The position numbers and the translations under genes were made by a program. Of a stretch of 64,000 nucleotides of DNA, positions 46,423-61,693 are shown one piece after another. The notes beneath the pieces are model-generated. The model was given only the letters and a program-made list of their open reading frames with translations. It searched no databases and was not told the origin of the DNA. Each line of letters opens with the position of its first letter. The stretch's first letter is position 1. This DNA comes from an uncultured delta proteobacterium (GTDB lineage Bacteria; Desulfobacterota; Binatia; UBA9968), in the NCBI GenBank assembly GCA_963804165.1, contig CAWDPO010000013.1, positions 32,001 to 96,000 on the forward strand. The letters are read 5' to 3'.

Positions 46423-47639
46423 AGCCAACAATCAGCGAAGCGTCCGCCAAACGCACAGCAATTTTTTCAATCGTCTGCAGCGCTCATTTTATCAATCACT
46501 TTCAATCGGCCATGCTCGGCGTTATCTATCCGCTCATGATGACAGAATTAGGCATGAGCTACATCGCCATCGCTTCGCTCGCTGCAGTCTACAACACACT
46601 CGGCAGCGTTTTTCAGGCCGCATACGGATTCGTCGTTCCATACGTACGGCGCGGCGTGATCCTCGGCGTCGGCAACTGCTTGCTTGGACTTTCCGTCGCC
46701 GCCACCGGCTTCGCCTCGAATTATAATCATTTTTTCACCGCGCGCTTGATCGGCGGCATCGGCTCCAGCCCGCAACATCCGGTTGGATCGAGCATACTCG
46801 CAAGTCGTTTCGGCGCCGCGCGCGGACGCACGTTGGCTTTTCATTCCACGGCGGGACAGATCGGCAGTTTATTGGCGCCGTTGCTGGCGGCGGTGATGGT
46901 CACCTACATCGGCTGGCGCGGTGTATTTTGGGTGGTCGGAGCGTTCGCGACGCTCATCGGGATGGTCTGCTTCGTCTTTCGCGACACGTTGCGCTCGGCG
47001 CCGGTAGACCAACAAAAATCCCGCCTCGTCCCAATGGGCTGGAACGCCTATAGGGCCTGTTTCAAAGACAGGAACATTTTACTTGTGTCACTGGTCTTCA
47101 TGGCCGGCGCCGCCGGACGCGGTCAAGACATCAATGAAGTCTACATCATTCCCCACTTTGTCCGTGATTTTGATGTCAGCATCACCTACGCCGCCTTTCT
47201 TTTCACTTTTATCCAGATCGGAAGTCTCATCGGGCCGTTTGTCTGGGGCTGGATCTCGGATCGTTTCAACCGCAAGTTGGTAATCCAAGCGTCACTGTTG
47301 ATGTCCGCGCTGTGCACCCTCTGGCTTGCCTGGCAACCGAACGTTTCCGCCGGGCTTTTCTTTAACTTAGTGATCTACGGCGCCGCGGTGACGTCGCGCC
47401 AGACGCTGACGCAGGCTTTATTAGCGGACCTCGTCGGTGAGGATCTCTTCGACGCGGCATTTAGCCTTTACTATTTTATCGGCTTCGTTTCGATTCCATT
47501 TTGGACGGTGATCACCGGCGGCGTCATGACCCACTACGGTTTTGGCCCCGCGTTCACCGTAATCTCGACTTCCTACCTTCTTGCCATGAGCCTTCTGGTG
47601 TTGCTGCGCACGCCGGTAAAACAGCCAAGCCCAAGATAA
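46416..47639 (+). CDS. MFS transporter
   Basis: AHFINH, QHPVGSS, GWISDRFNRK; overlaps receptor stop. Confidence 0.9.
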   Translation: MVEPTISEASAKRTAIFSIVCSAHFINHFQSAMLGVIYPLMMTELGMSYIAIASLAAVYNTLGSVFQAAYGFVVPYVRRGVILGVGNCLLGLSVAATGFASNYNHFFTARLIGGIGSSPQHPVGSSILASRFGAARGRTLAFHSTAGQIGSLLAPLLAAVMVTYIGWRGVFWVVGAFATLIGMVCFVFRDTLRSAPVDQQKSRLVPMGWNAYRACFKDRNILLVSLVFMAGAAGRGQDINEVYIIPHFVRDFDVSITYAAFLFTFIQIGSLIGPFVWGWISDRFNRKLVIQASLLMSALCTLWLAWQPNVSAGLFFNLVIYGAAVTSRQTLTQALLADLVGEDLFDAAFSLYYFIGFVSIPFWTVITGGVMTHYGFGPAFTVISTSYLLAMSLLVLLRTPVKQPSPR

Positions 47640-47643
47640 CAAA

Positions 47644-48429
47644 ATGTCGAAACAATTTTCCCTCGCTCCCTCTCTCGTGGCGTCGACTCTAATCCATCTC
47701 ACGGTGCTCGTGGTGGCGTCGACGGTGGTCGGTCAACGGAACCATTTCCCGGAGCCAGATCCAATTTCGATCGCGCTCTTGGATCCAATTGAGGACAACA
47801 AATCGATTCGTCCGTCTATGGAGAAGGCGACAAGGACGGCGCCTCCGAAACCACCGCCCGCAAAACGTATGCGTGAATCGGTCTTCACCGAGCCAGCTCC
47901 GCACCCGGCGGTTAAGAACGAAATTACCAAAACGGATGAAACCAAAACGTCGCCGTCAAAGACCCTGAATTCGACTCCGGAGAGTACAACTCTCGAAGGT
48001 GGCGGTAGCGCATCCGGAGTGGACGATCGCGCCGGTGGCGATATCGGCATCGCGACCGGCTCCGGGAACGCTGGAAACGGCACTGGCACAGCAATCGCCG
48101 GCATCGGACCCGGCTCCGGCGCGCCCGGGTCGCCAGCTCGAATCCCCCCGGTTCGCACCAACCGCGAGGCTAGACCGATTCAAACCGCCCGCGCCTTGTA
48201 CCCGCCGATGGCTCTGCGCATGGGATTGGAAGGCGATGTGATGCTCAGCATCGAAGTCGACCCCGAAGGCAAAGTCACCAGGGCGGAAATTATCAAGAGC
48301 GGCGGCGCGGGATTCGACGAAGAAGCGCTCAAAGCAGTGAAGCAGTCGCGCTTTGAGCCGGCGCAGCGCAACGGTCAGCACGTCCCCGCGGAGTTTAGTT
48401 ACGTTTATCGTTTCAGGTTGCAAAGATGA
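47644..48429 (+). CDS. tonB: Energy transducer TonB
   Basis: TM with S-x3-H, Pro/Gly-rich linker, YPPMALRMGLEGDV..FDEEALKAV. Confidence 0.9.
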   Translation: MSKQFSLAPSLVASTLIHLTVLVVASTVVGQRNHFPEPDPISIALLDPIEDNKSIRPSMEKATRTAPPKPPPAKRMRESVFTEPAPHPAVKNEITKTDETKTSPSKTLNSTPESTTLEGGGSASGVDDRAGGDIGIATGSGNAGNGTGTAIAGIGPGSGAPGSPARIPPVRTNREARPIQTARALYPPMALRMGLEGDVMLSIEVDPEGKVTRAEIIKSGGAGFDEEALKAVKQSRFEPAQRNGQHVPAEFSYVYRFRLQR

Positions 48430-48465
48430 GTAACCATAAATCGCAGTGAAGTAAGGAGATTAATC

Positions 48466-49077
48466 ATGGCAAACACATCGGATTCTATTTCCGGCCATCG
48501 CCACGATCACCACGATTGGGACTCGGATGAATATGTCTCGAACTGGGCGAAAGGTCAGGATCCCAAAGAAAAAGATCGCCACGCGGCATTTACCTTGATC
48601 GCCGACACCATTCTTTTTAGTAAAAACCTGCCGCTTCGAATTCTGGATCTCGGCGCCGGATACGGCGCCCTGACGCAATTTCTCCTGAACCGGTTTCCCA
48701 AAGCAACCGTTGTTTGTCAGGACGGCTCCAAGGAGATGGCGAAGCTCGGCGCCGAGCGCATGAAAAATCTTGCCGGGCGATTCGAATACATTCTTTGCGA
48801 TTTCGCCAAGGACGGCTGGAGCCAAAAACTTGATGGGCCGTTCGAGGCGGTGGTTTCGTCGATCGCGATTCACAACGTTCGCGAACCGAAAATCATTCGG
48901 CGTATTTACGAAGATGTGTTTCCATTGGTAAAAGCCGGCGGCTGTTTTTTGAATTTCGACCGCCCGCGACCGCCATGGGAAGAGCAAATGGAATGGCTGC
49001 GCGAAGCCGGATTCAAAGCCGTGAAAATCTTCTGGCAGGGTGGCGACCGCGCCGTATTCGGCGGATTTAAGAGCTAA
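48466..49077 (+). CDS. Class I SAM-dependent methyltransferase with His-rich N-terminus
   Basis: ILDLGAGYG, VVSSIAIHN; N-terminal HRHDHH; AAGGAG RBS. Confidence 0.88.
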   Translation: MANTSDSISGHRHDHHDWDSDEYVSNWAKGQDPKEKDRHAAFTLIADTILFSKNLPLRILDLGAGYGALTQFLLNRFPKATVVCQDGSKEMAKLGAERMKNLAGRFEYILCDFAKDGWSQKLDGPFEAVVSSIAIHNVREPKIIRRIYEDVFPLVKAGGCFLNFDRPRPPWEEQMEWLREAGFKAVKIFWQGGDRAVFGGFKS

Positions 49078-49083
49078 TTATCC

Positions 49084-50094
49084 ATGCGTTCCAAATGGAA
49101 ATTCTTCCTGGTGTTGGTATGGCTTTGTCTAAGCTTAGGCTGCCAGAATAAGGAGCAGAACCGGGTTCCCGCCAGCGAGCAAAAATTCAAAATCGTCTCG
49201 ACGGTCGCGCCGATCACGAGCATCGTGGAAAATGTCGCCGGGGACAAAGCGGATCTTTCTGGAATCATTCCCGAGGGAATCAACTCGCATACTTTTGAGC
49301 CCGCGCCGTCGGACAGCCGATTGCTGAGCGGCGCGCAACTGATCATCCTGAACGGGCTCGATCTGGAAACCCCCACACTAAAGCTCGCGCAAGCGAATTC
49401 GCCGCAGGGCGCATCGATCTATTCTCTTGGCGACAAAACGGTAACTGAAGCAGAGTACATCTACGATTTCAGTTTTCCCAAGGAGCAGGGCCATCCCAAT
49501 CCGCACCTGTGGTTAAATCCGGCATACGCCACGCGTTACGCGACTCTGGTGCGCGACGAGCTGATTCGCCTCGATCCGAAAAACAAATCCGCGTACGAAC
49601 AAAACACCGCACAATTTGTAAAGAGGCTCCAAGCGCTTGATCAAGCAATTAAAAATTCGATCCAAACCATTCCCGCGAACAACCGGCGCTTGCTCACCTA
49701 CCACGACTCCTGGCCCTATTTTGCGCGCCGCTACGGCTTTCAAGTGATCGGCGCGGTGCAACCGTCGGACTTTGCCGATCCCGGCCCCAAGGAAGTGATT
49801 CGACTGATCGAGCAGATTCGCAGAGAAAAAGTTCCGGCGGTTTTTGGCTCGGAGGTTTTTCCAAGCCCCGTCCTCGCCCAGATCGCGCGTGAAGGGAAAA
49901 GCAGATATATAGACAAGCTCCGCGATGATGAGTTGCCCGGCAAGCCCGGCGATCCGCGGCATTCGTATACCGGCATGATGATAGAAAATATGACGATCAT
50001 GTTCGAAGCTCTCGGCGGCTCGGCAGAAGCGCTGAAGAAGATCGATCCGACGCCGGTCGCCGGCTCGCACGCCGACTATCGGAGAAAAAACTAA
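49084..50094 (+). CDS. Metal ABC transporter substrate-binding lipoprotein (ZnuA/TroA family)
   Basis: LSLGC lipobox; SHTFEP, NPHLWLNP, YHDSWPYF. Confidence 0.93.
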   Translation: MRSKWKFFLVLVWLCLSLGCQNKEQNRVPASEQKFKIVSTVAPITSIVENVAGDKADLSGIIPEGINSHTFEPAPSDSRLLSGAQLIILNGLDLETPTLKLAQANSPQGASIYSLGDKTVTEAEYIYDFSFPKEQGHPNPHLWLNPAYATRYATLVRDELIRLDPKNKSAYEQNTAQFVKRLQALDQAIKNSIQTIPANNRRLLTYHDSWPYFARRYGFQVIGAVQPSDFADPGPKEVIRLIEQIRREKVPAVFGSEVFPSPVLAQIAREGKSRYIDKLRDDELPGKPGDPRHSYTGMMIENMTIMFEALGGSAEALKKIDPTPVAGSHADYRRKN

Positions 50095-50097
50095 CCC

Positions 50098-50961
50098 GTG
50101 GCAAATCCGCACGACCATCGCCCCGGCGATCCACACAGCCTCCATCCGCCCGGCCTCGAAGAGCGCCCCGTTGCTCGCGTCACTGCCGTTCCGCTCGTCG
50201 AGCTCGCCGACGTGAGCAACGGTTATGGAGCCACGCCGGCGTTGACCCGCGTGTCGTTAAAAATATGGCCGGGACAATTCATGGCCATCGTCGGACCCAA
50301 TGGCGGTGGCAAGACCACGTTGCTGCGTACCGTGCTCGGCATGGTTCCGGCGACGTCTGGAAAAGTGTTGCTGCGCGGACAAGAGTTAAAACGTTCGTCG
50401 TTGGAACGCATTGGCTACGTGCCGCAATTGGAAACCATCGATTGGAATTTTCCCATCACCGTCGAAGAAGTGATCGGCATGGGTTTCTTCGTCAAGAGCC
50501 GTTGGTTCGGCGGCATTGGCGATAAGGAGAAACGCAAGCTACGAGAAATTATGGAACGCTTGAATCTTGCCGGCTTGGGTCATCGCCACATTCGGGAACT
50601 CTCCGGCGGCCAACAGCAAGCGGCGTTCATCGGACGGGCTCTGTTGGGCGATCCCGAGTTGATCTTGCTCGACGAGCCCGCCTCGGGACTCGATATCCGC
50701 TCGCGCGACGACGTGATTCACTTCTTGCACGAAATTAATCATCAAGGAGTTGCCATCGTCCTGACGGCGCATGATTTGAACTGGGTGGCCGCCCATCTGC
50801 CCTGGGCTGTGTGCTTGAATCGCCGCCTGATTGCCGAAGGCCCGCCGAACGAAGTGTTCACTGCCAAGGTTTTACAAGATGTCTACACCGGCGAGATGGT
50901 GGTCCTGCACCAAGATGGCATGGTCATGATCGGCGAACGTCCCCACGCGCCCCATAATTAA
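50098..50961 (+). CDS. Metal ABC transporter ATP-binding protein (ZnuC/MntB-like)
   Basis: GPNGGGKT, GYVPQ, LSGGQQQ, LLDEP; His-rich termini. Confidence 0.93.
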   Translation: MANPHDHRPGDPHSLHPPGLEERPVARVTAVPLVELADVSNGYGATPALTRVSLKIWPGQFMAIVGPNGGGKTTLLRTVLGMVPATSGKVLLRGQELKRSSLERIGYVPQLETIDWNFPITVEEVIGMGFFVKSRWFGGIGDKEKRKLREIMERLNLAGLGHRHIRELSGGQQQAAFIGRALLGDPELILLDEPASGLDIRSRDDVIHFLHEINHQGVAIVLTAHDLNWVAAHLPWAVCLNRRLIAEGPPNEVFTAKVLQDVYTGEMVVLHQDGMVMIGERPHAPHN

Positions 50962-50973
50962 ACTAAATTCATG

Positions 50974-51062
50974 GTTCCAAAAGTTCCAGTCGTTCCAATC
51001 GTTCATTGCGTTTCGGTCCGTCCTCACCCTCGGAACATTTGAAACTTTGGAACGACTGGAAC
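50974..51062. repeat. Inverted repeat built of 9-nt GTTCCARWN units
   Basis: GTTCCAGTCGTTCCAA (50983-50998) is the exact reverse complement of 51047-51062. Confidence 0.75.
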
Positions 51063-51075
51063 GTCTTCTAAATCC

Positions 51076-51912
51076 ATGACTTTTTTAAGTCCCTTTGAAT
51101 ACGAATTTTTTCGCAACGGGTTGATCGCCGCCGTCGTCATCGGCGCGCTCTGTGGTTTTATCGGCGTCTACGTCGTGCTGCGCCGCATGAGCTACATCGG
51201 CCACGGCTTGTCCCATGCCATTTTCGGCGGCGCGGTGCTCAGCTACGTATTGAATATCAATTTTTTTATCGGCGGCGGTCTGTGGGCGCTTTTCGCGGGC
51301 GTCTTGATTCATTGGATCAGCCACCGCCGCTGGGTCGGGGCTGACGCCGCAATCGGCGTCGTGACCACCTCGAGTTTTGCTTTAGGCGTTGCGATCATCT
51401 CTACCCACCGCACTTTCACTCGCAACATCGAATCCGCGCTGTTCGGCAATATCCTCGGCATCACTCAAACTGACGTCTGGATCGTTGTCTTTATCTCTCT
51501 GCTGGTGTCCGGCGCGCTTTTTTTGATCCGTCGGCCGCTGCTATTCTCAACGTTCGATCCCGAAGTCGCATCGGCTTACGGCGTGGCGACCGGCAAGATC
51601 GATCTCCTCTTTATTATGCTCCTAGCCGTTACGGTTCTCGCCTCGACGCAAATCCTCGGCGTGACGTTGGTCGCCGCGGCCATGGTGATTCCGCCGGTCA
51701 TCGCGCGTTACTTGACGCAGCGATTCCAAACTCTGCTGATTGTCTCACCGCTGCTCGGCGCGTTTTGCGGCGCTGCCGGCATGTTTTTGAGTTTTCATTT
51801 CGATATCTCCTCCGCCGCCACCATCGTGCTCACCTCTGCCGCACTTTTCATCTTCGTCGAGCTCGCCCTGTTCGCGCGCGGCAAAGAGCCGGCGCCGATT
51901 CACGAGCATTGA
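51076..51912 (+). CDS. Metal ABC transporter permease (ZnuB/MntC-like)
   Basis: VVLRRMSYIGHGLSHA, DAAIG, LFGNIL, TFDPEVA. Confidence 0.93.
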   Translation: MTFLSPFEYEFFRNGLIAAVVIGALCGFIGVYVVLRRMSYIGHGLSHAIFGGAVLSYVLNINFFIGGGLWALFAGVLIHWISHRRWVGADAAIGVVTTSSFALGVAIISTHRTFTRNIESALFGNILGITQTDVWIVVFISLLVSGALFLIRRPLLFSTFDPEVASAYGVATGKIDLLFIMLLAVTVLASTQILGVTLVAAAMVIPPVIARYLTQRFQTLLIVSPLLGAFCGAAGMFLSFHFDISSAATIVLTSAALFIFVELALFARGKEPAPIHEH

Positions 51913-52044: not shown

Positions 52045-52449
52045 ATGACACTACGCAACCTGATTGCGATAGCCGCCTCGATGATTGCATTGCCGCTCTT
52101 CGCCTGGGCGCAACACGATCATTCGACACCGGCGAAACCCGCCACTGCAAAGACCGCGAAACCGGCGCCCAAACCGGCGGAGGGCGCGAGCATCAAGATT
52201 ATTTCACCGACCACTGGCCAGGTCCTCAAAGGTGACAAAGTGCCTATCGAGTATAAGCTCACCAAAGGTAAGCGCGGCCACCACGCCCACGCCTATGTGG
52301 ACGGCGAGCTAATGGGTATGTTCGAAAGCGAAAAGGGCACGCTCAACGGCATCAAACCCGGCAAACATTTATTGGAGCTGCGCGTCGTCGCCACCGATCA
52401 CGAAACCGAGTTGAACGCCAGCGACAAGGTCCAGTTCACAGTCAAATAG
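52045..52449 (+). CDS. Exported small His-containing protein with Ig-like/beta-rich domain
   Basis: Signal peptide (AWA-QHDH), Pro/Ala/Lys linker, GHHAHAYVDG, PGKHLLELRVVATDH. Confidence 0.75.
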   Translation: MTLRNLIAIAASMIALPLFAWAQHDHSTPAKPATAKTAKPAPKPAEGASIKIISPTTGQVLKGDKVPIEYKLTKGKRGHHAHAYVDGELMGMFESEKGTLNGIKPGKHLLELRVVATDHETELNASDKVQFTVK

Positions 52450-52516: not shown

Positions 52517-52921
52517 TTGCCGATGAACCCCGGAAGACCAGTCTCTAAACACCAGCGCGGCCTATACCTGAGCGTCGCCGCCGCGTTCTGGTTTTTTCTC
52601 GCCGCGTCCGCGCCGCACCGGGTGCATCATTTTTTCGTCGGGCAAGTTCTTGCGCCGCGGGCGCAAATCGCCGTCCACGCCCAGGAGCGCGGTGAGCATC
52701 ACAGCCACGATGATCATGACCGTCAACACGACCAACGACCGCTGCAGCAAAACGATTGCAGCGTCTTGTCCGTCGCTCAAAACGCGCACGCTTCAATCGT
52801 TCAGCCGTTTTCCTTTACCGTTCTCGAATGCGCGGTTACGCGCCGGCACGAACGGCCCGTAATAAGCGCGCCATCGTTCAATCCGGCACCTTTTTCTCAG
52901 CGCGCGCCGCCCCTGCTCTAG
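52517..52921 (+). CDS. DUF2946/CruR-like His-rich protein ending in RAPP
   Basis: N-terminal hydrophobic segment, PHRVHH, EHHSHDDHDRQH, DCSVL, C-terminal SQRAPPLL; start may be 52523. Confidence 0.7.
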   Translation: MPMNPGRPVSKHQRGLYLSVAAAFWFFLAASAPHRVHHFFVGQVLAPRAQIAVHAQERGEHHSHDDHDRQHDQRPLQQNDCSVLSVAQNAHASIVQPFSFTVLECAVTRRHERPVISAPSFNPAPFSQRAPPLL

Positions 52922-53150
52922 CCTTTTCCTGTTTTTCCCAAACTACTTTCGCCGTTATCGTTGAGCTCGCACTTCGATAGGTTATTTGTCGAACGAGAGG
53001 TTTAAATGTTGCTTCGCCGCCAATCCGTCGGCGGGTCTGCTGCTTTGATGGCACCGAATCGTCGAATCGCGGCGAGATCTGTGTGCGCATCGCGGTAAAA
53101 GCGATTTGGCCTAATGATCGAATCATTAAGCGACCAGGCAGGTGATAGGT

Positions 53151-54476
53151 ATGAGAGCGTATTTCACCAGATCGGCATCAATTCTATGCTGCTTGCTTTT
53201 TTTCGGATGTAGTTCCAATACGGCCGTGCCGGCCGCGGCAAGCCGGACGAACCGGGTGACGTTCGGACCGGAGATCAGCATCGGCAACGCGGAAGCGAAT
53301 CCCGCGACGCCGTTTCTGCGTTACGCTCCAGACGGCCGGCTCTTTGCTGTATGGACCGAGGACCACGATACACCGTGGCCGCAAGGAAAAGATTCCACCG
53401 GACACCATCGTATGTCGGGCGATCGAGCGCCGTCGCCGATGCGCAACGTATTTCTCGCCTGGTCGACGGACAGAGGAAAAACTTGGTCAGCGCGCAAGCG
53501 GGTGAATAGCGAAGTCGAAGCCGTCCAAGGAGAAGAAAACGGACCCAAAGTCGCGTTCGACGCCAACAACCGGGCCTACGTTGTCTGGTCGATCCCGGGA
53601 AGGAAAGGAGACAAGACCCGCGCCAATATTCGCTTCGCTAGGGACGACGGCAAAGGTGGCTTTACGCCTGCGCGAACCTTGAACGAAATTGAGGACGCCG
53701 CTCGCTTTCCGATCATCGAAGCGACGCCCGCAGGCGATTTCCTGATCGCCTGGATCGACCGGCGCATCGACAATCCGAAACCGCGCCAACTCTATTTAAT
53801 TAGGCTCGGTGGCGACGGGAAAGCGCTGACGAAGAATTATCCGGTCGGGGAAGGCCTTTGTGAGTGTTGCAAACTGGGCGTCGCATTCGCCGGCGGCAGC
53901 AAAACGGTCTATATGGTGGACCGTGAAGTAGACGGCAATAAAATTCGCAACCACGTGCTACGCAAGTCGACGGATGGTGCCGCGACCTTCAGCGCGCCGG
54001 TCGAAATCAGTGACGACGGCTGGCAAGTGCCCTCCTGTCCACACTCGGGCCCGAGCATCGGTCGCGACCGCCGCGGTTGGCTCCACGTGACCTGGTTCAC
54101 CCTAGGCCGCTCGGAAAAAGAAGCGGGCATTTATTACAGCGTGTCGAAAGACGATGGCAAAAGCTTTGAACCTCGCCAGCTGGTGCACGCCAACACGGCG
54201 CCGGAAACTCTCTATGCCAACTTAGCGGTGGGCGATGACGATAACATTTACCTGGCATGGAGTAATCTCGACAATCGCAGCCGGGCGCAAATATTCATGC
54301 GCACGATTGCAAGCGATGGTAAAACCTGGAGCCCGATACAGCAGATCAGCGACGCTAAAGCCAACGCCAGCCGGCCGGTTCTGGCGTTGCGCGAGAATCA
54401 CGTGCACATTGCTTGGACGGAAACGGACAGTGAGGACTCACGCGTGGTCCTCAGAAGCGCGGCGGTGGACCGGTGA
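53151..54476 (+). CDS. BNR/Asp-box (sialidase-like) beta-propeller lipoprotein with CECC and CPH motifs
   Basis: LFFGC lipobox; Asp-boxes STDRGKTW, STDGAATF, SKDDGKSF, SDGKTW. Confidence 0.85.
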   Translation: MRAYFTRSASILCCLLFFGCSSNTAVPAAASRTNRVTFGPEISIGNAEANPATPFLRYAPDGRLFAVWTEDHDTPWPQGKDSTGHHRMSGDRAPSPMRNVFLAWSTDRGKTWSARKRVNSEVEAVQGEENGPKVAFDANNRAYVVWSIPGRKGDKTRANIRFARDDGKGGFTPARTLNEIEDAARFPIIEATPAGDFLIAWIDRRIDNPKPRQLYLIRLGGDGKALTKNYPVGEGLCECCKLGVAFAGGSKTVYMVDREVDGNKIRNHVLRKSTDGAATFSAPVEISDDGWQVPSCPHSGPSIGRDRRGWLHVTWFTLGRSEKEAGIYYSVSKDDGKSFEPRQLVHANTAPETLYANLAVGDDDNIYLAWSNLDNRSRAQIFMRTIASDGKTWSPIQQISDAKANASRPVLALRENHVHIAWTETDSEDSRVVLRSAAVDR

Positions 54477-55054
54477 AGTCAAATTCAATTGTGGCGATAC
54501 TCCTCATCCATTGGCGGAATGTGAGGTTGTTGGCATCAGCGCTCTGTTGCGCCGCCGCGATTGCGCTAGCGCCGGCGACCGGCTGGACGCAGCACGAGCA
54601 CAACACCGGCCAAAGCGCCGTGCCATCGGTCGGTGGTCCGGCGATACCGTTCGATCTCAAATCGCTCGAAGGCAAGTCGGTCGGATTGGCAAGCTTCCGC
54701 GGTCAGCCGTTAGTGCTGAACTTTTTCGCTAGTTGGTGCGATCCCTGCCGCGAGGAAATGCCGCTGATCAATGATCTCGCGTCAAGGAGTGCCACGGAGG
54801 GTTACAGCGTGCTGGGCGTCGCCGTCGAAGACAGCCGTGCCGCGGTGACGGAGTACGCCAAAGAAACCAAGCTGGTCTTTCCGATCGCGCTCGACTTGAA
54901 CAGCACGGTGAAGCGCGCCTATCGCATCTTCGGCCCGCCGGCGACGTTTTTCATCGATGCTCAGGGCGTCGTTCGCGACATCGTTCTTGGTCCATTGACA
55001 CGCGAGCGGGCACTTGAAGCACTTAAGAAAACCAGAGCGGTCGTGAAGAACTAA
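54473..55054 (+). CDS. TlpA/ResA-type thioredoxin-like disulfide reductase
   Basis: LNFFASWCDPCREEMP, PATFFID; signal peptide. Confidence 0.92.
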   Translation: MKSNSIVAILLIHWRNVRLLASALCCAAAIALAPATGWTQHEHNTGQSAVPSVGGPAIPFDLKSLEGKSVGLASFRGQPLVLNFFASWCDPCREEMPLINDLASRSATEGYSVLGVAVEDSRAAVTEYAKETKLVFPIALDLNSTVKRAYRIFGPPATFFIDAQGVVRDIVLGPLTRERALEALKKTRAVVKN

Positions 55055-55060
55055 AAACGA

Positions 55061-55993
55061 TTGTTTTTCAAATCGATGTTTTCTGACAGAACGCCCATTT
55101 ACGTGGGTGCGATCACTTTCCTGTTAATCGTGGCGACTCCTTATGCGGCGGCAGGCGTGCCAATTCGTTCGCAAGACGGCCCACTTCGGGTAGTCGAATC
55201 CTACCTCCGGGCAACTCAAGCGCGCGACTTTGGAACGGCCTACAGCTACATTTCCAACACCGACCAACGGATCAGGGACAAAGCCGGCTATCTGCGATCT
55301 CAGGAATACCTCAGCGGTTTCGCCCTCGAGCTTGCCAACCGACTCGTCGCTAAAATGAAAGTGTGGGTGATCAATCAAAAAGTCGGACCGGCGAAGGCCC
55401 GTTTCGAAGTCGGCTATCGACGACCCGCCGGTGATGAAATTTCGTCACGACTTTTCGATTGGAATGCCAGCAAGCTCAACGCTCTACCGCAGAGCGAACA
55501 GCGGCGCCTGGCCGAAGCTTTGGAAAATTTCCAAAGATCAGGAAAGATGGTATCCCTCGAAGGGCACGAGACTTTGGATCTCGTACGTGAGAAAGACGGA
55601 TGGAAAATTTTTCTCGATTGGGCAGCGCGCTCGCGCGTTATTTTCGCCTCGACGACGCCGTCCTCCGGTGCACTGGAGGTTCAGTTTCCACGCAATGATT
55701 TTCTGGTTGCAACCAACGAGCCGTTTCAAATCGACTTCACGGTCAGAAACCGAAGCCCGCGCGCGACGGTCGCCAGACTCACCCACCTTATCGAGCCGCG
55801 CGGTTTGGCCAAGAACGTGGAGATGATCGCGTGCGGTTCACTGTCGCCGCTGCGGCTCAAGCCGGGTCAAGCTCGGGAAGTGTCCAGCTCGTATATCTTA
55901 GGAGGTGATCTTTCTCCCCGATCGCGTCTCTTGATCATCTACCAATTTACTTTAGAGTCCAAACTCGCGGCGACGAACCCGTCTCGCGAGTGA
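55061..55993 (+). CDS. Exported two-domain protein with Cox11/CtaG-like C-terminal domain, paralog 1
   Basis: YLRATQARDF N-domain; FTVRNRS..THLIEP..MIACGSL..LKPGQ; start uncertain (55076 possible). Confidence 0.65.
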   Translation: MFFKSMFSDRTPIYVGAITFLLIVATPYAAAGVPIRSQDGPLRVVESYLRATQARDFGTAYSYISNTDQRIRDKAGYLRSQEYLSGFALELANRLVAKMKVWVINQKVGPAKARFEVGYRRPAGDEISSRLFDWNASKLNALPQSEQRRLAEALENFQRSGKMVSLEGHETLDLVREKDGWKIFLDWAARSRVIFASTTPSSGALEVQFPRNDFLVATNEPFQIDFTVRNRSPRATVARLTHLIEPRGLAKNVEMIACGSLSPLRLKPGQAREVSSSYILGGDLSPRSRLLIIYQFTLESKLAATNPSRE

Positions 55994-56014
55994 GCGACGC
56001 AGAATCCGGTTATT

Positions 56015-56932
56015 TTGATGGCAAGTAACGACCGCTGTCCGCGAGGGAGATTCAATCCGCCGCGATCCTTGCGGATCGCTCTCTTCCTAGTGCTCGTGGC
56101 TCAGGAAACTCTTCACTGTGCCGAACAGTCGTTCAATCAGCACGCATCCGCCTCCGTGATTCACGCTTATCTGCGGGCGACTTATGCCCGCGACTTCGCC
56201 ACGGCGTATCGCTTTGTCTCCGCCGAAGATCGTAAAGTGCGCGACCTAAATCGCTACCTCCGGCAACGTGGACCGTATGACGGCTTCATTCTGGAAGCAG
56301 CGAAGAAGCTGAGCGAATTCGTCGAAATTCAAGCGCTGAAGACGCGCGAATCGCCGAACCGCGTTCACGTGTCGATCAAATACCGCGTTCCCGACCCGCA
56401 AAAACTCGCACTGCTACTATTCAACTGGGATCCGTACCGCTTGAATGCTTTGCTGCCGACCGAGCAAAAACAACTTATCGATTTGCTGGACAAACGGGGT
56501 ACCGAAGGCTCACTCGCGATGAGCCAAGGCGAAGAAGCCTTCGAGTTGGTCAAAGAATCTGACGGCTGGCGCATTTTTTTGAACTGGGCCGCGGGCGTGA
56601 AGATCCCGCTCCGGCTCGACTTATCTAAGTCAACGGACCTGGACGTTGCGCTTTCGAAGAATGAATTTGTCCTACAGCCCGGCGAGCTATTCGAGATTGT
56701 TTTGCGAATCAAGAACCACGCCAAGCAGCCGGTTACTGTGCGCATCGGACATCTAGTCGAGCCCAGCTCGATCGCCGATTTTCTCGATTTTGTTCAATGC
56801 GGTTTTCTCCTACCGGTCACAGTTCAGCCCGAAAAGGAACAAGAATTTTCAGGCACCTACATGTTACGAGGCAGCCTCCCCGAAGGCATTCGTCAATTGA
56901 CTTTGACCTACGACTTCCGCCAGCTTAAGTAA
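56015..56932 (+). CDS. Exported two-domain protein with Cox11/CtaG-like C-terminal domain, paralog 2
   Basis: YLRATYARDF; QPGELF..KNH..GHLVEP..FVQCGFL..LPEGIRQLTLTYDF. Confidence 0.7.
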   Translation: MMASNDRCPRGRFNPPRSLRIALFLVLVAQETLHCAEQSFNQHASASVIHAYLRATYARDFATAYRFVSAEDRKVRDLNRYLRQRGPYDGFILEAAKKLSEFVEIQALKTRESPNRVHVSIKYRVPDPQKLALLLFNWDPYRLNALLPTEQKQLIDLLDKRGTEGSLAMSQGEEAFELVKESDGWRIFLNWAAGVKIPLRLDLSKSTDLDVALSKNEFVLQPGELFEIVLRIKNHAKQPVTVRIGHLVEPSSIADFLDFVQCGFLLPVTVQPEKEQEFSGTYMLRGSLPEGIRQLTLTYDFRQLK

Positions 56933-57034
56933 TCCTTTGACGCGAGAGGGCTCCCGTATCTGGCGCGCCCATCTTTTTTGTGATTAATTAAAAATGGAAT
57001 TTGTTCGTCTAATCCATCGTGAGGCGAGAAACTG

Positions 57035-57628
57035 ATGAAAAACTTTAGCCGCATTTTTGTTCTGCTGTTTTGGACCGTCGTCGGTCCACGTCAATTGGGC
57101 GAGGTCATTCTCGTTCGACCCCTTTCGATCGGCGCTGCCAACGCTCAAGATTCCGCCTTTGAATCGAAAAAGATCGTTCCGTTCGTGCCCTCGCCACAAG
57201 TGGTGGTGGATAAGATGGTCGAGCTCGCGGGTGTGAAAAAAGGCGACGTCGTGTTCGACCTGGGTTCGGGCGACGGCCGGATCGTCATCGCGGCGGCAAA
57301 AAGAGGCGCCACGGCGATCGGCTTTGAAATCGACGGCGATCTGGTGAAGGAGTCGCGCGAGAATATTCGCAAGGCCGGCGTTCAGGATTTAGCCGAGATT
57401 CGCCAGCAGGATATTCTCACCGTCGACTTTTCGCCTGCGTCAGTGGTGACCATGTATTTGCTGCCCGACGTCAACTTGAAGTTGAAACCCAATCTTTTGA
57501 GTCAGCTCAAACCCGGCTCGCGTCTCGTCTCTCATGCCTTCGACATGGGCGACTGGAAACCGGAGAAAGTCGAGCGGGTCGAGGGGCGTACGGTCTATTT
57601 TTGGACCATTCCGGCAAAGGGACGCTAA
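57035..57628 (+). CDS. SAM-dependent methyltransferase with signal-like N-terminus
   Basis: VPFVPSPQ, VFDLGSGDGRIVI, VVTMYLLP, SHAFDMGDW. Confidence 0.88.
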   Translation: MKNFSRIFVLLFWTVVGPRQLGEVILVRPLSIGAANAQDSAFESKKIVPFVPSPQVVVDKMVELAGVKKGDVVFDLGSGDGRIVIAAAKRGATAIGFEIDGDLVKESRENIRKAGVQDLAEIRQQDILTVDFSPASVVTMYLLPDVNLKLKPNLLSQLKPGSRLVSHAFDMGDWKPEKVERVEGRTVYFWTIPAKGR

Positions 57629-57661
57629 TCCGAGCGGGGGATCCTCGACCAAGATTCTGCC

Positions 57662-58567
57662 TTGACCACCCGAATGCCCCGCCTTGTTAAAAATTTTCTT
57701 CTGTTCGTTTTTACGGCTGCCACGCTGGCGCTGCCCGGGATCTATTGGATCAACACGGTCGGCGACAGACGCCCTGAGGACCCGACCCAGGTTTTGTCGA
57801 AATATCTTAAATTCCTTTATGCGCGCGATTTTCGTCACGCGTATCGATTCATCGCCAGCGAAGATCAGCAGTTGAAACCGCAAAAAGATTACATCCGCGA
57901 GCACGACCCGTTCAGTGGTTTCGCGTTGCAAGCCGCGCGCAAGCTGGCCGGCCTGATCGAGCTCAGGCCGGTATCGGAGCAACCGGATGGGAAAGCCAGC
58001 CGCGTCCGGGTCGCTATGAAGCTTCCTGACGCCAAAGGGATCTCGGAGTTATTGCTCGACTGGGATGAAAAACGGTTGAACGCCCTGTCGGTGCCGGCGC
58101 AAAATAAGATTATTTCGACCATCGACAACCTGATTCGGCAACGGAAATTGCCGATGATCGAGGGCGAGGAAGAGTTTGTCTTGGTGAAAGAAGACGCGCT
58201 TTGGAAAGTTAAACTCAATTGGGCTGCCGGCGTTAAGGTTAAGTTTGCCACCGTTCTGCCGCACAACGGCGACCTGGTGGCGGAACCGATCACCAAGGAA
58301 ACGGTTGCACGCTCGGACGACTTATTTACAATCGGATTCAAAGTAAAAAACCGCGCCTCCCGCGAAGTCGTCACTCGGATCGCGCACCGGGTCGAGCCCA
58401 AGGAGTTTGCACAATATCTGGATCTCGTCGAATGCGCTCTTTTACTTCCTGTGCGGCTTCGCCCGGGCGAAGAGCAAACTTATAACAGCACCTATGTCGT
58501 TCGCGGCGATTTGCCGGACGGCATCAAAGGCCTGGACGTTACCTATGAGTTCAAAGTCGAAAATTAA
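57662..58567 (+). CDS. Membrane-anchored two-domain protein with Cox11/CtaG-like C-terminal domain, paralog 3
   Basis: YLKFLYARDF; FKVKNRAS..AHRVEP..QYLDLVECALL..LRPGEE..DLPDGIKGLDVTYEF. Confidence 0.7.
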   Translation: MTTRMPRLVKNFLLFVFTAATLALPGIYWINTVGDRRPEDPTQVLSKYLKFLYARDFRHAYRFIASEDQQLKPQKDYIREHDPFSGFALQAARKLAGLIELRPVSEQPDGKASRVRVAMKLPDAKGISELLLDWDEKRLNALSVPAQNKIISTIDNLIRQRKLPMIEGEEEFVLVKEDALWKVKLNWAAGVKVKFATVLPHNGDLVAEPITKETVARSDDLFTIGFKVKNRASREVVTRIAHRVEPKEFAQYLDLVECALLLPVRLRPGEEQTYNSTYVVRGDLPDGIKGLDVTYEFKVEN

Positions 58568-59174
58568 CCGGGCACTTTTTTTCGCCCTGACCACGACGAC
58601 TCTTTTCTCGCCAGTCGCCTGGTCTCATATCCCTATTCCGCCCAAAGCACCGAGCGAAATAGGCCGCCGAGTCGTGAAAACCGCCGTGCCGGACTTCAAT
58701 CTCACCGATCAAGACGGCAAACCGTTTCACTTCGCCGCGGCAAGAGGAAAATTGATTCTGATCAATTTCATATTCACGACCTGTCCTGACGTCTGCCCGC
58801 TGTTAACGGCCAATTTCGCAGCGATCCATCGGACGTTGGACGAAAACAAGGTCAAAGACTATCTGTTGCTCAGCATTACCACCGATCCCGAACGGGACAC
58901 GGCGCCGATTTTGAAGGACTACGCCGGCCGCTTCAAAGCCGACTTGAAGCATTGGTCGTTTCTGACCGGCACCCGCCCGGAGTTGGCCAAAGTATGGAAA
59001 GGCTTCGGCATCAACGTCGTCAAAAACGAGTCCGGACAAGTGCAGCACACGACGTTCACGACTTTGGTGGATCGCCAAGGTAACCGTCGGGTCGACTACT
59101 ACGGCGACAAATGGCAGGACAAGGAAGTTCTCAATGATCTTGGGAGGCTGCGCGCGCGAAAACCTTTAAGTTAA
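58545..59174 (+). CDS. SCO1/SenC family protein
   Basis: FTTCPDVCP, TTDPERDT, VQHT; signal peptide; ATG 58545 overlaps previous gene. Confidence 0.9.
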   Translation: MSSKSKINRALFFALTTTTLFSPVAWSHIPIPPKAPSEIGRRVVKTAVPDFNLTDQDGKPFHFAAARGKLILINFIFTTCPDVCPLLTANFAAIHRTLDENKVKDYLLLSITTDPERDTAPILKDYAGRFKADLKHWSFLTGTRPELAKVWKGFGINVVKNESGQVQHTTFTTLVDRQGNRRVDYYGDKWQDKEVLNDLGRLRARKPLS

Positions 59175-59209: not shown

Positions 59210-59788
59210 ATGCCGAACCCGTCGAAGCAGTTCTTTCCGTTTTTTAGTGCTCTGCCCCTGATCGCTGCCTGCCTATTCACAAACGCGGCAAGAGCTGCCC
59301 AGAACGATCGGGGAATTTTCGAGATTCAAATCAAGGATCATCGTGAAGCGATCGGTGATTTTGCCAAGTTCGATATCGCGCTCGATAAACTTCTGATCAG
59401 TCCCAGGGCGGGACTGATGTTCTGGCAAACGGGTTGGAAAGAGCTACAGCCGTCGGTCGCCGTGGTGGATCTGACCCAATACGTCGGCAAAAAAACTGCG
59501 CGAGTGTATCGCGGTGAAATTAACCCGGGATCATTCGACGCATTTCATGTAAAAATTAAGAGCATCGACGCCCTGCTGAAAAAGACCCGCCGCTCGACAT
59601 CGGTCAAAGATATCGTTGGCGCGGTGAAACTGTCTTTTCAGGTGCCCGCTAAAGGAGAGACCGTTCTCGTGCTCGATCTCGTCGTCACCGACTTTTCCGA
59701 CCACCCCCCGCGCGGCTATGAACTCGGTATCAAAGGCTACGAGCTCTACGTTAACGGCAGACTCATGGAGAGAATACCGCCCGGATGA
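59210..59788 (+). CDS. Exported beta-rich protein (DUF4382-like)
   Basis: Signal peptide; EIQIKDH..VDLTQY..GSFD..LVLDL pattern. Confidence 0.5.
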   Translation: MPNPSKQFFPFFSALPLIAACLFTNAARAAQNDRGIFEIQIKDHREAIGDFAKFDIALDKLLISPRAGLMFWQTGWKELQPSVAVVDLTQYVGKKTARVYRGEINPGSFDAFHVKIKSIDALLKKTRRSTSVKDIVGAVKLSFQVPAKGETVLVLDLVVTDFSDHPPRGYELGIKGYELYVNGRLMERIPPG

Positions 59789-60164: not shown

Positions 60165-60812
60165 ATGGACGCATCTAAAACTCGGTTTATCCTGCTCGGC
60201 CTCGCTGTCGTTGGTTTGGGCATCGTTCTCGGCACGGCGCTCTGGCTTAGACTCGGTCCGCGCGCGCAATTCGGGCGCGGCGCGCCTGACTCTGCCCATG
60301 GCTTAAATCAGTACGGAATCGTGCCGGATTTTTCGTTCACGGAAAGAAACGGCAGCGCCATGGGCTTGGCCCAGTTACGCGGCAAAATATGGATCGCCGA
60401 CTTTATTTACACGACCTGCACCGACACTTGCCCGCTGCAAACCGCCACGATGGCCAAGTTGCAAGCGGAGTTTGCCGCCAAGCCGGATATTCAGCTGGTG
60501 TCGTTTACCGTCGATCCCGAACGCGACACACCTCAAGCCCTGACTCTTTATGCGAACAAGTATCAGGCCGATGCCAAGCGCTGGTATTTTTTGACCGGCG
60601 AGCGCGACCGAATTTTTCGTCTGATCCTGGAAGGCTTTCATTTAGCCGTGGCGTCGATGCCCAACAATGGCGACCCCAGCGGCATGATCCCACACAGCCC
60701 ACGTTTTGTGTTGGTGGACAAGGAAGCGCGCATACGCGGGTACTACGACAGCCGTGAATCGGCGGCGCTGGTCCGGCTGAAAAACGACATCGACAGCTTA
60801 ACGAAGGGATAG
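60165..60812 (+). CDS. SCO1/SenC family protein
   Basis: N-terminal TM; YTTCTDTCP, TVDPERDTP, PHSPRFVLVD..IRGYYD. Confidence 0.92.
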   Translation: MDASKTRFILLGLAVVGLGIVLGTALWLRLGPRAQFGRGAPDSAHGLNQYGIVPDFSFTERNGSAMGLAQLRGKIWIADFIYTTCTDTCPLQTATMAKLQAEFAAKPDIQLVSFTVDPERDTPQALTLYANKYQADAKRWYFLTGERDRIFRLILEGFHLAVASMPNNGDPSGMIPHSPRFVLVDKEARIRGYYDSRESAALVRLKNDIDSLTKG

Positions 60813-60817
60813 CAGCG

Positions 60818-61693
60818 ATGGCCAACGAGAGAAGTAGAAAAGGCAAACAAGCGACGGCGAGTGTGGTGATGCGCGAGGGGCCCAATTGGCCGCTATTCGG
60901 TCTCGCGCTGCTCGGCATGGCGCTATCCGGCTATCTCACTTTTACGGCGTGGCAAGGGAACCTCGTGGCTTTTTGCACCGAAGGGACGGGCTGTGACGTT
61001 GTGCTCAATAGCCGCTGGTCCACGCTCCTCGGCATGCCGACTTCGTTCTGGGGTTTTCTCACCTACGCGCTGCTCGCAGCGGTGGCCTGGAACAAAAATG
61101 CCGCGGATCAATGGCGTTGGGCGTGGGTGATTGCGTTTTTCGGTTTGCTTTACAGCCTGTATTTGACCTCGATCTCGTTTTTCGAATTGCAGGCCGCCTG
61201 CCCATACTGCCTGACTTCGCTCGGTTTGATGGCGGCCATCGTCATCGTTACGACGTTTCAAAAACCGGCCAATTTGCCGAAATTTTCCTGGGGTCCGTGG
61301 TTGGCAAAAACTGTCGGCGTCGCCGTAGTCATGATTGTCGCGCTGCATTCCTATTACGCCGGCTACTGGGGCAATGCCCCGGGACCGGAAGACCCGTGGG
61401 TCCGCGGTCTTGCCGAGCATCTCTCGAAGACCGACGCCAAATTTTACGGCGCCTCTTGGTGTCCCCACTGTTCCGAGCAAAAACACTTGTTCGGCAGCTC
61501 GGTCAAACGCATCCCCTATGTGGAATGCAGCCCGGGCGGCCAAAACGCCCCCTCCGCGCCGGTCTGTAAAGAAAAAAATATTACAAACTATCCGACGTGG
61601 ATCATTAACGGACAGCGCTACACCGGCATCCAACCTTTAGATGCGCTCGCGCAATTGAGTCAATATAATAAGGGGCAAGGGGGCAAGCCATGA
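60818..61693 (+). CDS. Vitamin K epoxide reductase (VKOR)-thioredoxin fusion
   Basis: FCTEGTGCDVVLNSRWS and CPYC in VKOR domain; FYGASWCPHC, YVEC, YPTW in Trx domain. Confidence 0.93.
   Translation: MANERSRKGKQATASVVMREGPNWPLFGLALLGMALSGYLTFTAWQGNLVAFCTEGTGCDVVLNSRWSTLLGMPTSFWGFLTYALLAAVAWNKNAADQWRWAWVIAFFGLLYSLYLTSISFFELQAACPYCLTSLGLMAAIVIVTTFQKPANLPKFSWGPWLAKTVGVAVVMIVALHSYYAGYWGNAPGPEDPWVRGLAEHLSKTDAKFYGASWCPHCSEQKHLFGSSVKRIPYVECSPGGQNAPSAPVCKEKNITNYPTWIINGQRYTGIQPLDALAQLSQYNKGQGGKP

Follow-up and report, generated by a model that had tools for sequence, protein, structure and literature searches.

The three paralogous genes

We describe three paralogous genes in a 64 000-nucleotide stretch of contig CAWDPO010000013.1 (hereafter the window) from an uncultured member of the Binatia (assembly GCA_963804165.1). 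The genes, designated W1 (55061–55993), W2 (56015–56932) and W3 (57662–58567), all lie on the forward strand and encode proteins of 310, 305 and 301 residues, respectively. Each protein has a hydrophobic N-terminus followed by a domain of predicted NTF2-like fold and a C-terminal domain that resembles the copper chaperone Cox11 (CtaG), in which the CFC motif has been reduced to a single conserved cysteine. The three proteins belong to a previously undescribed single-cysteine branch of NTF2–Cox11 proteins within a known chaperone family. In W3 the predicted helix spans residues 7–33, the NTF2-like domain residues ∼37–186 and the Cox11-like sandwich residues ∼187–301.

The three sequences align from end to end with 31–32% identity and share 58 invariant columns, among which are YL..A.ARDF..AY, GF.L..A..L, W....LNAL and G.E...LV.E...W...L.WA. 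The CFC motif is replaced by CGS in W1, CGF in W2 and CAL in W3, and an H-x2-EP motif lies upstream of it in all three (HLIEP, HLVEP and HRVEP, respectively), such that the conserved histidine precedes the conserved cysteine by 16 residues in each protein. These residues are Cys258 (codon 55832–55834) and His242 (55784–55786) in W1, Cys262 (56798–56800) and His246 (56750–56752) in W2, and Cys258 (58433–58435) and His242 (58385–58387) in W3; Cys258 is the sole cysteine of both W1 and W3. An earlier note on this DNA had proposed three Cox11-like paralogs within 55061–58567, and the open reading frames (ORFs) lie at exactly these coordinates. The N-domain motifs that it quoted are found among the invariant columns, and the substituted CFC motif and upstream H-x2-EP that it reported can be read in all three proteins. 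The note overlooked, however, a gene for a 197-residue methyltransferase between W2 and W3.

Inspection of the sequences indicates a hydrophobic N-terminal segment in each of W1, W2 and W3, and in the orthologs of W2 the N-terminus resembles a cleavable signal peptide ending in A-A-E. The proteins are thus probably extracytoplasmic, either exported or anchored in the membrane. In comparisons with their orthologs the ratio of nonsynonymous to synonymous substitution rates (dN/dS, NG86) is 0.12–0.28, which indicates purifying selection on all three genes. Given these values and the number of homologs described below, the ORFs and their motifs are far beyond what chance could produce.

Homology and predicted fold

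In each protein the C-terminal stretch of ∼110 residues is matched by the Pfam model CtaG_Cox11 (PF04442), which has a curated cut-off of 25 bits. The scores of W2 (27.6 bits) and W3 (31.4 bits) are above this value and that of W1 (19.9 bits) is below it. Scores against the NCBIfam equivalog NF003465 are 14.6–31.6 bits compared with a cut-off of 162. When a profile of W1–W3 was compared with solved structures, the sole match at E < 0.01 was Cox11 from Sinorhizobium meliloti (1so9, E = 1e-6). In this alignment the conserved cysteine falls on the first cysteine of CFC(F) and the conserved histidine on the phenylalanine of TFNVTP.

An AlphaFold2 model of W3, calculated from a 60-row family alignment, has a mean predicted local distance difference test score (pLDDT) of 94.7. 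The top Foldseek match to this model is the immunoglobulin-like β-sandwich of apoCox11 (1so9; E = 1.3e-5, TM 0.69 for the target, root-mean-square deviation 2.7). The top VIA-align match is also apoCox11 (1sp0_A), with a Z score of 11.6, a root-mean-square deviation of 3.2 and 23% identity over 117 aligned residues; the next entry has a Z score of 9.4. On the strength of its sequence and its predicted fold, we take the C-terminal domain to be a true Cox11 homolog.

The first ∼185 residues of W1, W2 and W3 are without any Pfam match at E < 0.1. Residues 37–186 of the W3 model superpose on many NTF2-like chains with Z scores of 7.4–8.2, a range that VIA-align calls common; the matches include YchJ, the CaMKII hub, a putative NTF2-like transpeptidase (3K7C) and scytalone dehydratase. 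The ESM Atlas returned a DUF4878-named cluster with a score of 0.75, which we treat as a lead only. The N-terminal domain is, at these moderate Z scores, best described as NTF2-like in its predicted fold, and no family membership is claimed. Both the Pfam match to the last ∼110 residues and an NTF2-like partner domain had been anticipated in the earlier note.

A domain of this kind also occurs apart from Cox11. When a further 300 genomes from the phylum, with a completeness of at least 85%, were sampled, five gave a match at E ≤ 1e-10, and all five matches cover N-domain positions only. At four loci lacking the Cox11 domain (L033:5866-7179, L034:5713-6732, L035:6133-6699 and L032:6147-7187) the N-domain is found together with LysM, together with DUF2393, as a 188-residue stand-alone protein encoded next to a heavy-metal P-type ATPase, and as part of a 346-residue protein without a Pfam domain, the gene for which adjoins TerB and BrxC/D genes. 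The variety of these architectures suggests a mobile module that is not metal-specific in itself.

Two clades of the family

With W3 as the query, 297 clusters (representatives at 50% identity) were found at E ≤ 1e-3, 67 of them at E ≤ 1e-30; with W2 as the query, 534 clusters (90% identity) were found at E ≤ 1e-3, more than 120 of which share 60–78% identity with it. The W2 homologs are mostly named 'hypothetical protein', with a few named 'cytochrome c oxidase assembly protein'. Source labels read 'Candidatus Binatia bacterium' or 'Deltaproteobacteria bacterium' and are mostly Binatia; the outliers are one Limnocylindrales and one Chloroflexota homolog, both on contigs of ∼4–6 kb. Candidatus Binatota is likewise the commonest phylum in the three nearest ESM Atlas clusters. 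A single-protein locus scan for the family gave one true locus, L030.

The family alignment was prepared from 68 representatives of 270–500 residues, less 11 that appeared to be truncated or frameshifted (P0121, P0125, P0141, P0150, P0158, P0175, P0215, P0217, P0227, P0229 and P0270), and comprises 60 rows. Residues Pro122, Trp181, Asn230 and Cys258 are invariant across these rows and His242 is at least 90% conserved. Addition of 18 ORFs from the genomes of relatives, with one fragment excluded, gave a set of 78 rows, of which 37 keep CFC and 41 have a single cysteine at the motif. The single-cysteine rows read CG[FLSAVY], CPL/CPM, CAL, CSL or CLS, with the second cysteine lost in all 41. No further cysteine is present in 23 of these 41 proteins, W1 and W3 included. 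The first cysteine is found without exception in all 78 rows, and the histidine is present in 41 of 41 single-cysteine rows and in 31 of 37 CFC rows. The earlier note had named a generic immunoglobulin-type fold devoid of Cys/His conservation as the outcome that would tell against it; this conservation and the apoCox11-like model are the opposite of that outcome. Its proposal of a new His/Cys family holds for the conservation of the two residues, but not family-wide, as about half of the rows are of the CFC type.

A quick maximum-likelihood tree of the 78 rows (LG+G4, SH-aLRT support only, midpoint root) contains a single branch, with a support of 100, that divides the CFC rows from the single-cysteine rows. 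W1, W2 and W3 fall into three separate subclades on the single-cysteine side, with W1 grouping with CG[SAFLV] sequences; the paralogs are therefore old. The CFC clade retains an additional Cox11 hallmark, LPW.F.P. These comparisons describe a two-domain NTF2–Cox11 family in which the CFC form appears to be ancestral and the genes of the window a derived clade. The histidine did not arise to replace the lost cysteine, because the 31 CFC members carry it too.

The loss of half of the metal site raises the question of whether metal is still handled at all. The lone cysteine could instead form mixed disulfides with SCO1, TlpA or VKOR proteins, or the W proteins could hold such partners at the membrane. 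Scores against PF04442 fall from 85–102 bits in the CFC forms to 20–43 bits in the single-cysteine forms, the W genes are flanked by genes for three proteins of the thiol oxidoreductase type, and the N-domain is joined elsewhere to non-metal domains (LysM and DUF2393), all of which would suit a redox or scaffolding role. However, all three genes are under purifying selection, and the cysteine and histidine are retained together in every single-cysteine row, in the manner of a ligand pair, with the cysteine at the Cox11 motif and the histidine at a functionally sensitive position. The latter is that of a conserved tyrosine of Cox11, exactly 16 residues before the cysteine: according to PMC9172173, Tyr-139 of the Plasmodium falciparum protein lies 16 residues before Cys-155, and mutation of the counterpart in yeast, Tyr-192, impaired function. 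In our view, a role without metal is improbable.

Distribution among relatives

We searched 40 relatives of the order and found a family match in 34. In two other families of the order 11 of 16 genomes gave a match, ten of them with a single full-length copy and one (G028) with a partial copy only, and the ORFs extracted from these families were CFC-type in nine of nine cases. Single-cysteine and CFC types were never seen in one genome among those searched.

The genus of the window was surveyed in 25 genomes, including that of the window itself (G000). All three types are present in 11 of these (G000–G005, G008, G011, G014, G018 and G021), of which G005 is unpublished and G011 has W2 as a partial ORF. 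Seven genomes have W2 and W3 only (G007, G009, G012, G017, G020, G022 and G023); in G009 and G022 the contig starts at W2 and W1 could lie beyond it, whereas the upstream DNA of the other five is without W1. W3 occurs alone in G015 (98% complete, 20 contigs) and G016 (82% complete). The remainder consist of contig-end fragments (G006, G010 and G013), frameshifted pieces (G019) and G024 (92% complete), in which no family member was found. No genome of the genus that could be classified lacks the W3 type, and the pattern is nested: W3, W2 with W3, and then all three.

The earlier note had suggested that the proteins are perhaps hetero-oligomeric and that their co-occurrence as a triplet be examined. 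In the strictest form of this idea, an obligate hetero-trimer, W1, W2 and W3 would each give one cysteine to a trigonal Cu(I)–S3 site common to all three, which would take the place of the cysteine-rich cluster found in a Cox11 dimer. Three near-tandem paralogs with one conserved cysteine each, which in W1 and W3 is the only one, are what such a site would call for, and all three types do occur together in the 11 genomes listed above. NTF2-like domains, for example the CaMKII hub, are often oligomerization modules, and the CaMKII hub is among the fold matches of the N-domain. The presence of the genes is nested rather than all-or-none, however, with W3 alone in two genomes and W2 with W3 in seven, five of which have no W1 upstream. 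The obligate trimer agrees poorly with this census, and we consider it very unlikely.

Gene order and neighbourhood

In the genus, orthologs of the methyltransferase encoded between W2 and W3 (E = 1e-70 to 1e-116) stand beside the W genes in 18 of the 21 genomes whose loci were examined, directly upstream of W3 where this was checked; none was found in G001 (gene-sized pieces only), G015 or G022 (a 3 kb contig). An SCO1 ortholog lies directly downstream of the W3-type gene in at least 13 genomes of the genus and is followed by a gene for a DUF4382 protein, and VKOR is conserved downstream in relatives. The constant module is thus methyltransferase–W3–SCO1–DUF4382, with W3 as the core and W1 and W2 as accessory members.

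In the window, the methyltransferase gene (57035–57628) encodes a class I S-adenosylmethionine-dependent enzyme (Methyltransf_31) whose N-terminal segment is hydrophobic. The model that fits it best is that of an archaeal protein-lysine N-methyltransferase (NF041081), at 128.6 bits compared with a cut-off of 200. A putatively membrane-anchored enzyme resembling lysine methyltransferases is an unexpected member of a metal-chaperone module. W3 is followed by genes for an SCO1/SenC copper chaperone with a CxxxC motif (58542–59174; PF02630, 100 bits), a 192-residue DUF4382 protein with a signal peptide and a predicted β-sandwich (59210–59788), a second SCO1/SenC protein (60165–60812; 99.8 bits), a thiol oxidoreductase of the VKOR family (60818–61693; PF07884, 88 bits) with a cysteine-containing C-terminal extension (WCPHC) and, after it, a rhodanese. 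The start of the first SCO1 gene is uncertain, as its longest ORF opens at 58407 and thus within W3. On the other side, a gene for a TlpA/ResA-like periplasmic thioredoxin (54473–55054; WCDPC) ends 6 nt upstream of W1, and its start is overlapped by 4 nt by a gene for a 444-residue β-propeller protein of the BNR/sialidase-like type (53142–54476), in which the motifs CECC and SCPH occur. G004, G007 and G018 have orthologs of the BNR and TlpA-like genes within this same cluster. All of these genes are co-directional on the forward strand, and from the BNR gene through to that for DUF4382 the intergenic gaps do not exceed about 100 nt. Scans of the window for promoters and terminators gave counts no different from the shuffle level.

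The DUF4382 protein contains the invariant motifs KDHR.AI.DF and D.SDHP.RGYEL. In several CFC-type members of the family DUF4382 is fused to the NTF2–Cox11 protein. The fusion is C-terminal in P0144, P0155 and six genomes belonging to family f3, and N-terminal in P0148; a single 572-residue ORF of G037 (L020:8685-10403, reverse strand) combines the CFC-type gene with DUF4382. The fusions are strong evidence from sequence of a functional link between DUF4382 and the CFC-type proteins. No solved relative of DUF4382 was found by sequence, and its model (pLDDT 84.9) is a generic β-sandwich. We considered whether it might be a copper protein of the PCuAC or CopC kind and rejected this, as the model matched only generic sandwiches (Bacteroides fimbrial proteins, Z = 8.5; MbnP, Z = 5.0).

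Further upstream on the same strand is a metal-uptake block (43867–51912) that encodes NikR, a TonB-dependent receptor, a major facilitator superfamily transporter, TonB, a methyltransferase, ZnuA, ZnuC and ZnuB. Genes for a cytochrome c and a third SCO1 protein are divergent from this nikR block. The NikR scores 169.6 bits against an NCBIfam cut-off of 105, and its nickel-site His/His/His/Cys residues align with those of solved NikR. A 25-nt palindrome, GACACGAA-N7-TTCGTGTTAC, occurs at 43823–43847 in the promoter region that nikR shares with the divergent cytochrome c/SCO1 pair. A second site of this kind near the W genes was sought and rejected, the site upstream of nikR being the only one in the window with three or fewer mismatches. 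We regard the uptake block as co-directional context of the W genes.

Related arrangements are found outside the genus. The single-contig genome G025 has the order nikR, znuA, znuC, znuB, cox11-like (CFC), DUF4382, SCO1, VKOR, all co-directional and spaced −8 to 101 nt apart, and in G037 ZnuC and ZnuB directly precede the fused CFC/DUF4382 gene, with SCO1 and VKOR on its other side. Within the genus, the place of ZnuABC ahead of the W cluster of G004 (L024:12077-17619) is taken by genes for a TonB-dependent receptor, for a DsrE-like protein and for a PepSY_TM-like protein whose match is weak and below the cut-off. The module is thus not always accompanied by the same uptake genes.

This context must be weighed in considering which metal the W proteins might carry. 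If the substitution of imidazole for thiolate shifts the preference towards borderline ions, the proteins could serve the NikR/Znu uptake genes and handle nickel or zinc. The gene orders of G025 and G037 and the intact NikR that heads the co-directional block of the window are consistent with this, as is the fact that the invariant residues of DUF4382 are His and Asp and not Cys or Met. Against it, the same NikR/Znu context is shared by CFC-type relatives, in which the classical Cu(I) motif is kept, both SCO1 and Cox11 have been documented to be copper proteins, the candidate NikR palindrome is single and lies upstream of nikR only, and in G004 the W genes are not beside Znu genes among the ORFs scanned. 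A nickel or zinc function is accordingly a minor possibility in our estimation.

Several other features of the window were noted. Between the uptake block and the BNR gene are a gene for a 134-residue secreted protein with the motif GHHAHAY (52045–52449, forward strand) and a doubtful ORF, also of 134 residues, with the His-rich stretch HHSHDDHDRQHD (52517–52921, forward strand); no Pfam family scores above cut-off for either. On the reverse strand RNase Y appears to be split into two overlapping ORFs, RNase_Y_N (40346–40990) and KH+HD (39417–40394), within 39417–40990, which points to a frameshift or to a fault in the assembly. The reverse strand also carries a complete rRNA operon (16S, two tRNAs, 23S and 5S) at 31744–37192, which accounts for the scarcity of ORFs and the strongly negative GC skew in this region.

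Proposed function

We consider that there is about an even chance that W1–W3 constitute a Cox11-derived extracytoplasmic Cys/His metal relay, with copper the most likely metal, which acts together with the SCO1 and DUF4382 proteins. The ancestor would be Cox11/CtaG, the copper(I) chaperone that builds CuB. In its ancestral CFC form it would have been encoded by one gene per genome, with DUF4382 either beside it or fused to it and with SCO1 and VKOR following; in the genus of the window the place of this gene would be held by up to three old paralogs, in which the first cysteine and the histidine at −16 have been kept. The W proteins may act as periplasmic thiolate/imidazole carriers that pass the ion to or from SCO1 and DUF4382, and the proper redox state of the single thiol would be maintained by the TlpA-like and VKOR oxidoreductases. 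A cysteine and a histidine alone cannot make a Cu2S4 cluster, and therefore another subunit or a partner protein would have to complete the coordination sphere. W3 would be the core component of this relay and W2 and W1 additions to it. TlpA reportedly reduces ScoI. The participation of Sco and Cox11 in one pathway has a precedent, since in Rhodobacter, according to a review (PMC9145763), PCuAC gives copper to both; no PCuAC was found in G000 (81% complete).

A number of observations weigh against this interpretation. As described in PMC9172173, canonical Cox11 has a transmembrane helix, a cysteine just after it, the motif CFCF and a lysine three residues before the motif; function requires the three cysteines and that lysine, and the juxtamembrane cysteine is needed for insertion of CuB. 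The review describes Cox11 as a dimer with a Cu2S4 cluster (PMC9145763). None of W1, W2 and W3 retains the second cysteine of CFC, and with one cysteine per subunit such a cluster cannot be built in a dimer. The juxtamembrane cysteine is also missing, as W1 and W3 have no cysteine other than that of the motif and Cys35 of W2 is Ala, Gly or Pro in its orthologs. The lysine at −3 is replaced by Met in W1, Phe in W2 and Leu in W3; the CFC-type consensus has no majority residue at this position. The linkage of NikR, with its intact nickel site, and a Znu-type importer to the cluster, together with the harder histidine ligand, leaves room for nickel or zinc. There are no oxidase genes in the 64 kb window, which makes a role in CuB assembly doubtful, and the genomes show little relation between oxidases and the family: G015, with W3 only, has three COX1 matches, G008 and G021, with all types, have one each, and G024 has five without a family member. 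Three genomes, G014, G025 and G037, contain Caa3_CtaG, an alternative factor.

The same genomes bear on whether W1–W3 are functional Cox11 orthologs that insert CuB into A-type haem–copper oxidases despite the altered site. W1–W3 are the only PF04442 matches in G000, as are the family genes in G004 and G014 and the single CFC gene in each of G025, G037 and G038; all six genomes carry an A-type oxidase subunit I, with 2–4 COX1 matches in G000, G004 and G014. Caa3_CtaG was not found in G000 (81% complete), G015 (98% complete) or G024. On the other hand, G024 has oxidases without the family, Caa3_CtaG occurs in three of the six genomes examined for it, the W genes are not linked to cox genes, copy numbers are unrelated, and the three cysteines and the lysine reported in PMC9172173 as essential are mostly missing. 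We therefore think that CuB insertion by the W proteins has little likelihood. The notion of one paralog per oxidase was rejected, as COX1 counts do not track the paralog types. Subunit B of the particulate monooxygenase was considered as a client and gave no match in the window's own genome; the control search matched nowhere, which makes this result uninformative.

A broader version of the metal relay can be envisaged, although we give it only a small share of the probability. The module might be an undescribed extracytoplasmic assembly line for metal centres in the Binatia, made up of the membrane-anchored lysine-methyltransferase-like enzyme, W3, SCO1, DUF4382, a second SCO1 and VKOR. It would be built around a stripped-down Cox11, to which W2 and W1 have been added and, in part of the genus, the TlpA-like protein. 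The metal, copper or else nickel under the control of NikR, would pass by way of DUF4382 and SCO1 to a periplasmic or membrane enzyme other than cytochrome oxidase.

If a metal is still bound, one clade would have a Cox11 fold that works with one thiolate and one imidazole, a natural experiment on the minimum number of ligands for a copper relay. Cox11 is usually treated as a proteobacterial and mitochondrial protein with a fixed three-cysteine chemistry, and a sizeable environmental family, fused to another domain, falls outside this description. DUF4382, an NTF2-like module and a conserved methyltransferase are now tied to what may be metal-centre assembly, and they offer candidate factors for equipping the copper enzymes of a phylum that is widespread in soil and uncultured. 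We found no description in the literature of NTF2–Cox11 fusions, of single-cysteine Cox11 homologs or of the function of DUF4382. None of the listed papers on Cox11-like proteins and copper, judged by title and the start of the abstract, concerned such a protein, the papers found on copper in the Binatota and on NikR/Sco1 operons had titles on other subjects, and DUF4382 appeared only in an archaeal glycoproteomics study.

Comparison with known systems

Compared with canonical Cox11/CtaG, the W proteins share what appears to be a homologous sandwich, a putative N-terminal hydrophobic anchor, a probable extracytoplasmic location, the first cysteine of CFC and an adjacent gene for SCO1, which is a partner in the assembly of copper centres. 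They differ in lacking the second cysteine, the juxtamembrane cysteine and the lysine at −3, and in having histidine in place of Tyr/Phe at −16. The anchor is separated from the sandwich by an inserted domain of ∼150 residues with a predicted NTF2-like fold, the paralogs number three, and the genes are not linked to those of an oxidase. The host also lies outside the range of Cox11 given in the 2022 review, namely the α-, β- and γ-Proteobacteria and eukaryotes (PMC9145763).

The closest relatives are the CFC-type NTF2–Cox11 proteins, such as those of G025 (L022:9207-10187) and G037 (L020:8685-10403). These have the same architecture, the same N-domain residues (Tyr48, Asp68, Pro122 and Trp181), the histidine, and DUF4382, SCO1 and VKOR as neighbours. 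In contrast to the W proteins, they keep CFCF and LPW.F.P, occur as one copy per genome and are often fused to DUF4382.

With respect to the N-terminal domain, periplasmic NTF2-like domains such as 3K7C and the DUF4878-like proteins appear to share the predicted α+β cone fold but differ from that of the W proteins, which has no Pfam match at E < 0.1. The module as a whole resembles the Sco/TlpA/PCuAC toolkit of the Proteobacteria in that SCO1, a TlpA-like thioredoxin and a Cox11-like protein are encoded together. It differs in the addition of DUF4382, VKOR and the methyltransferase, which are without counterpart in the known toolkit.

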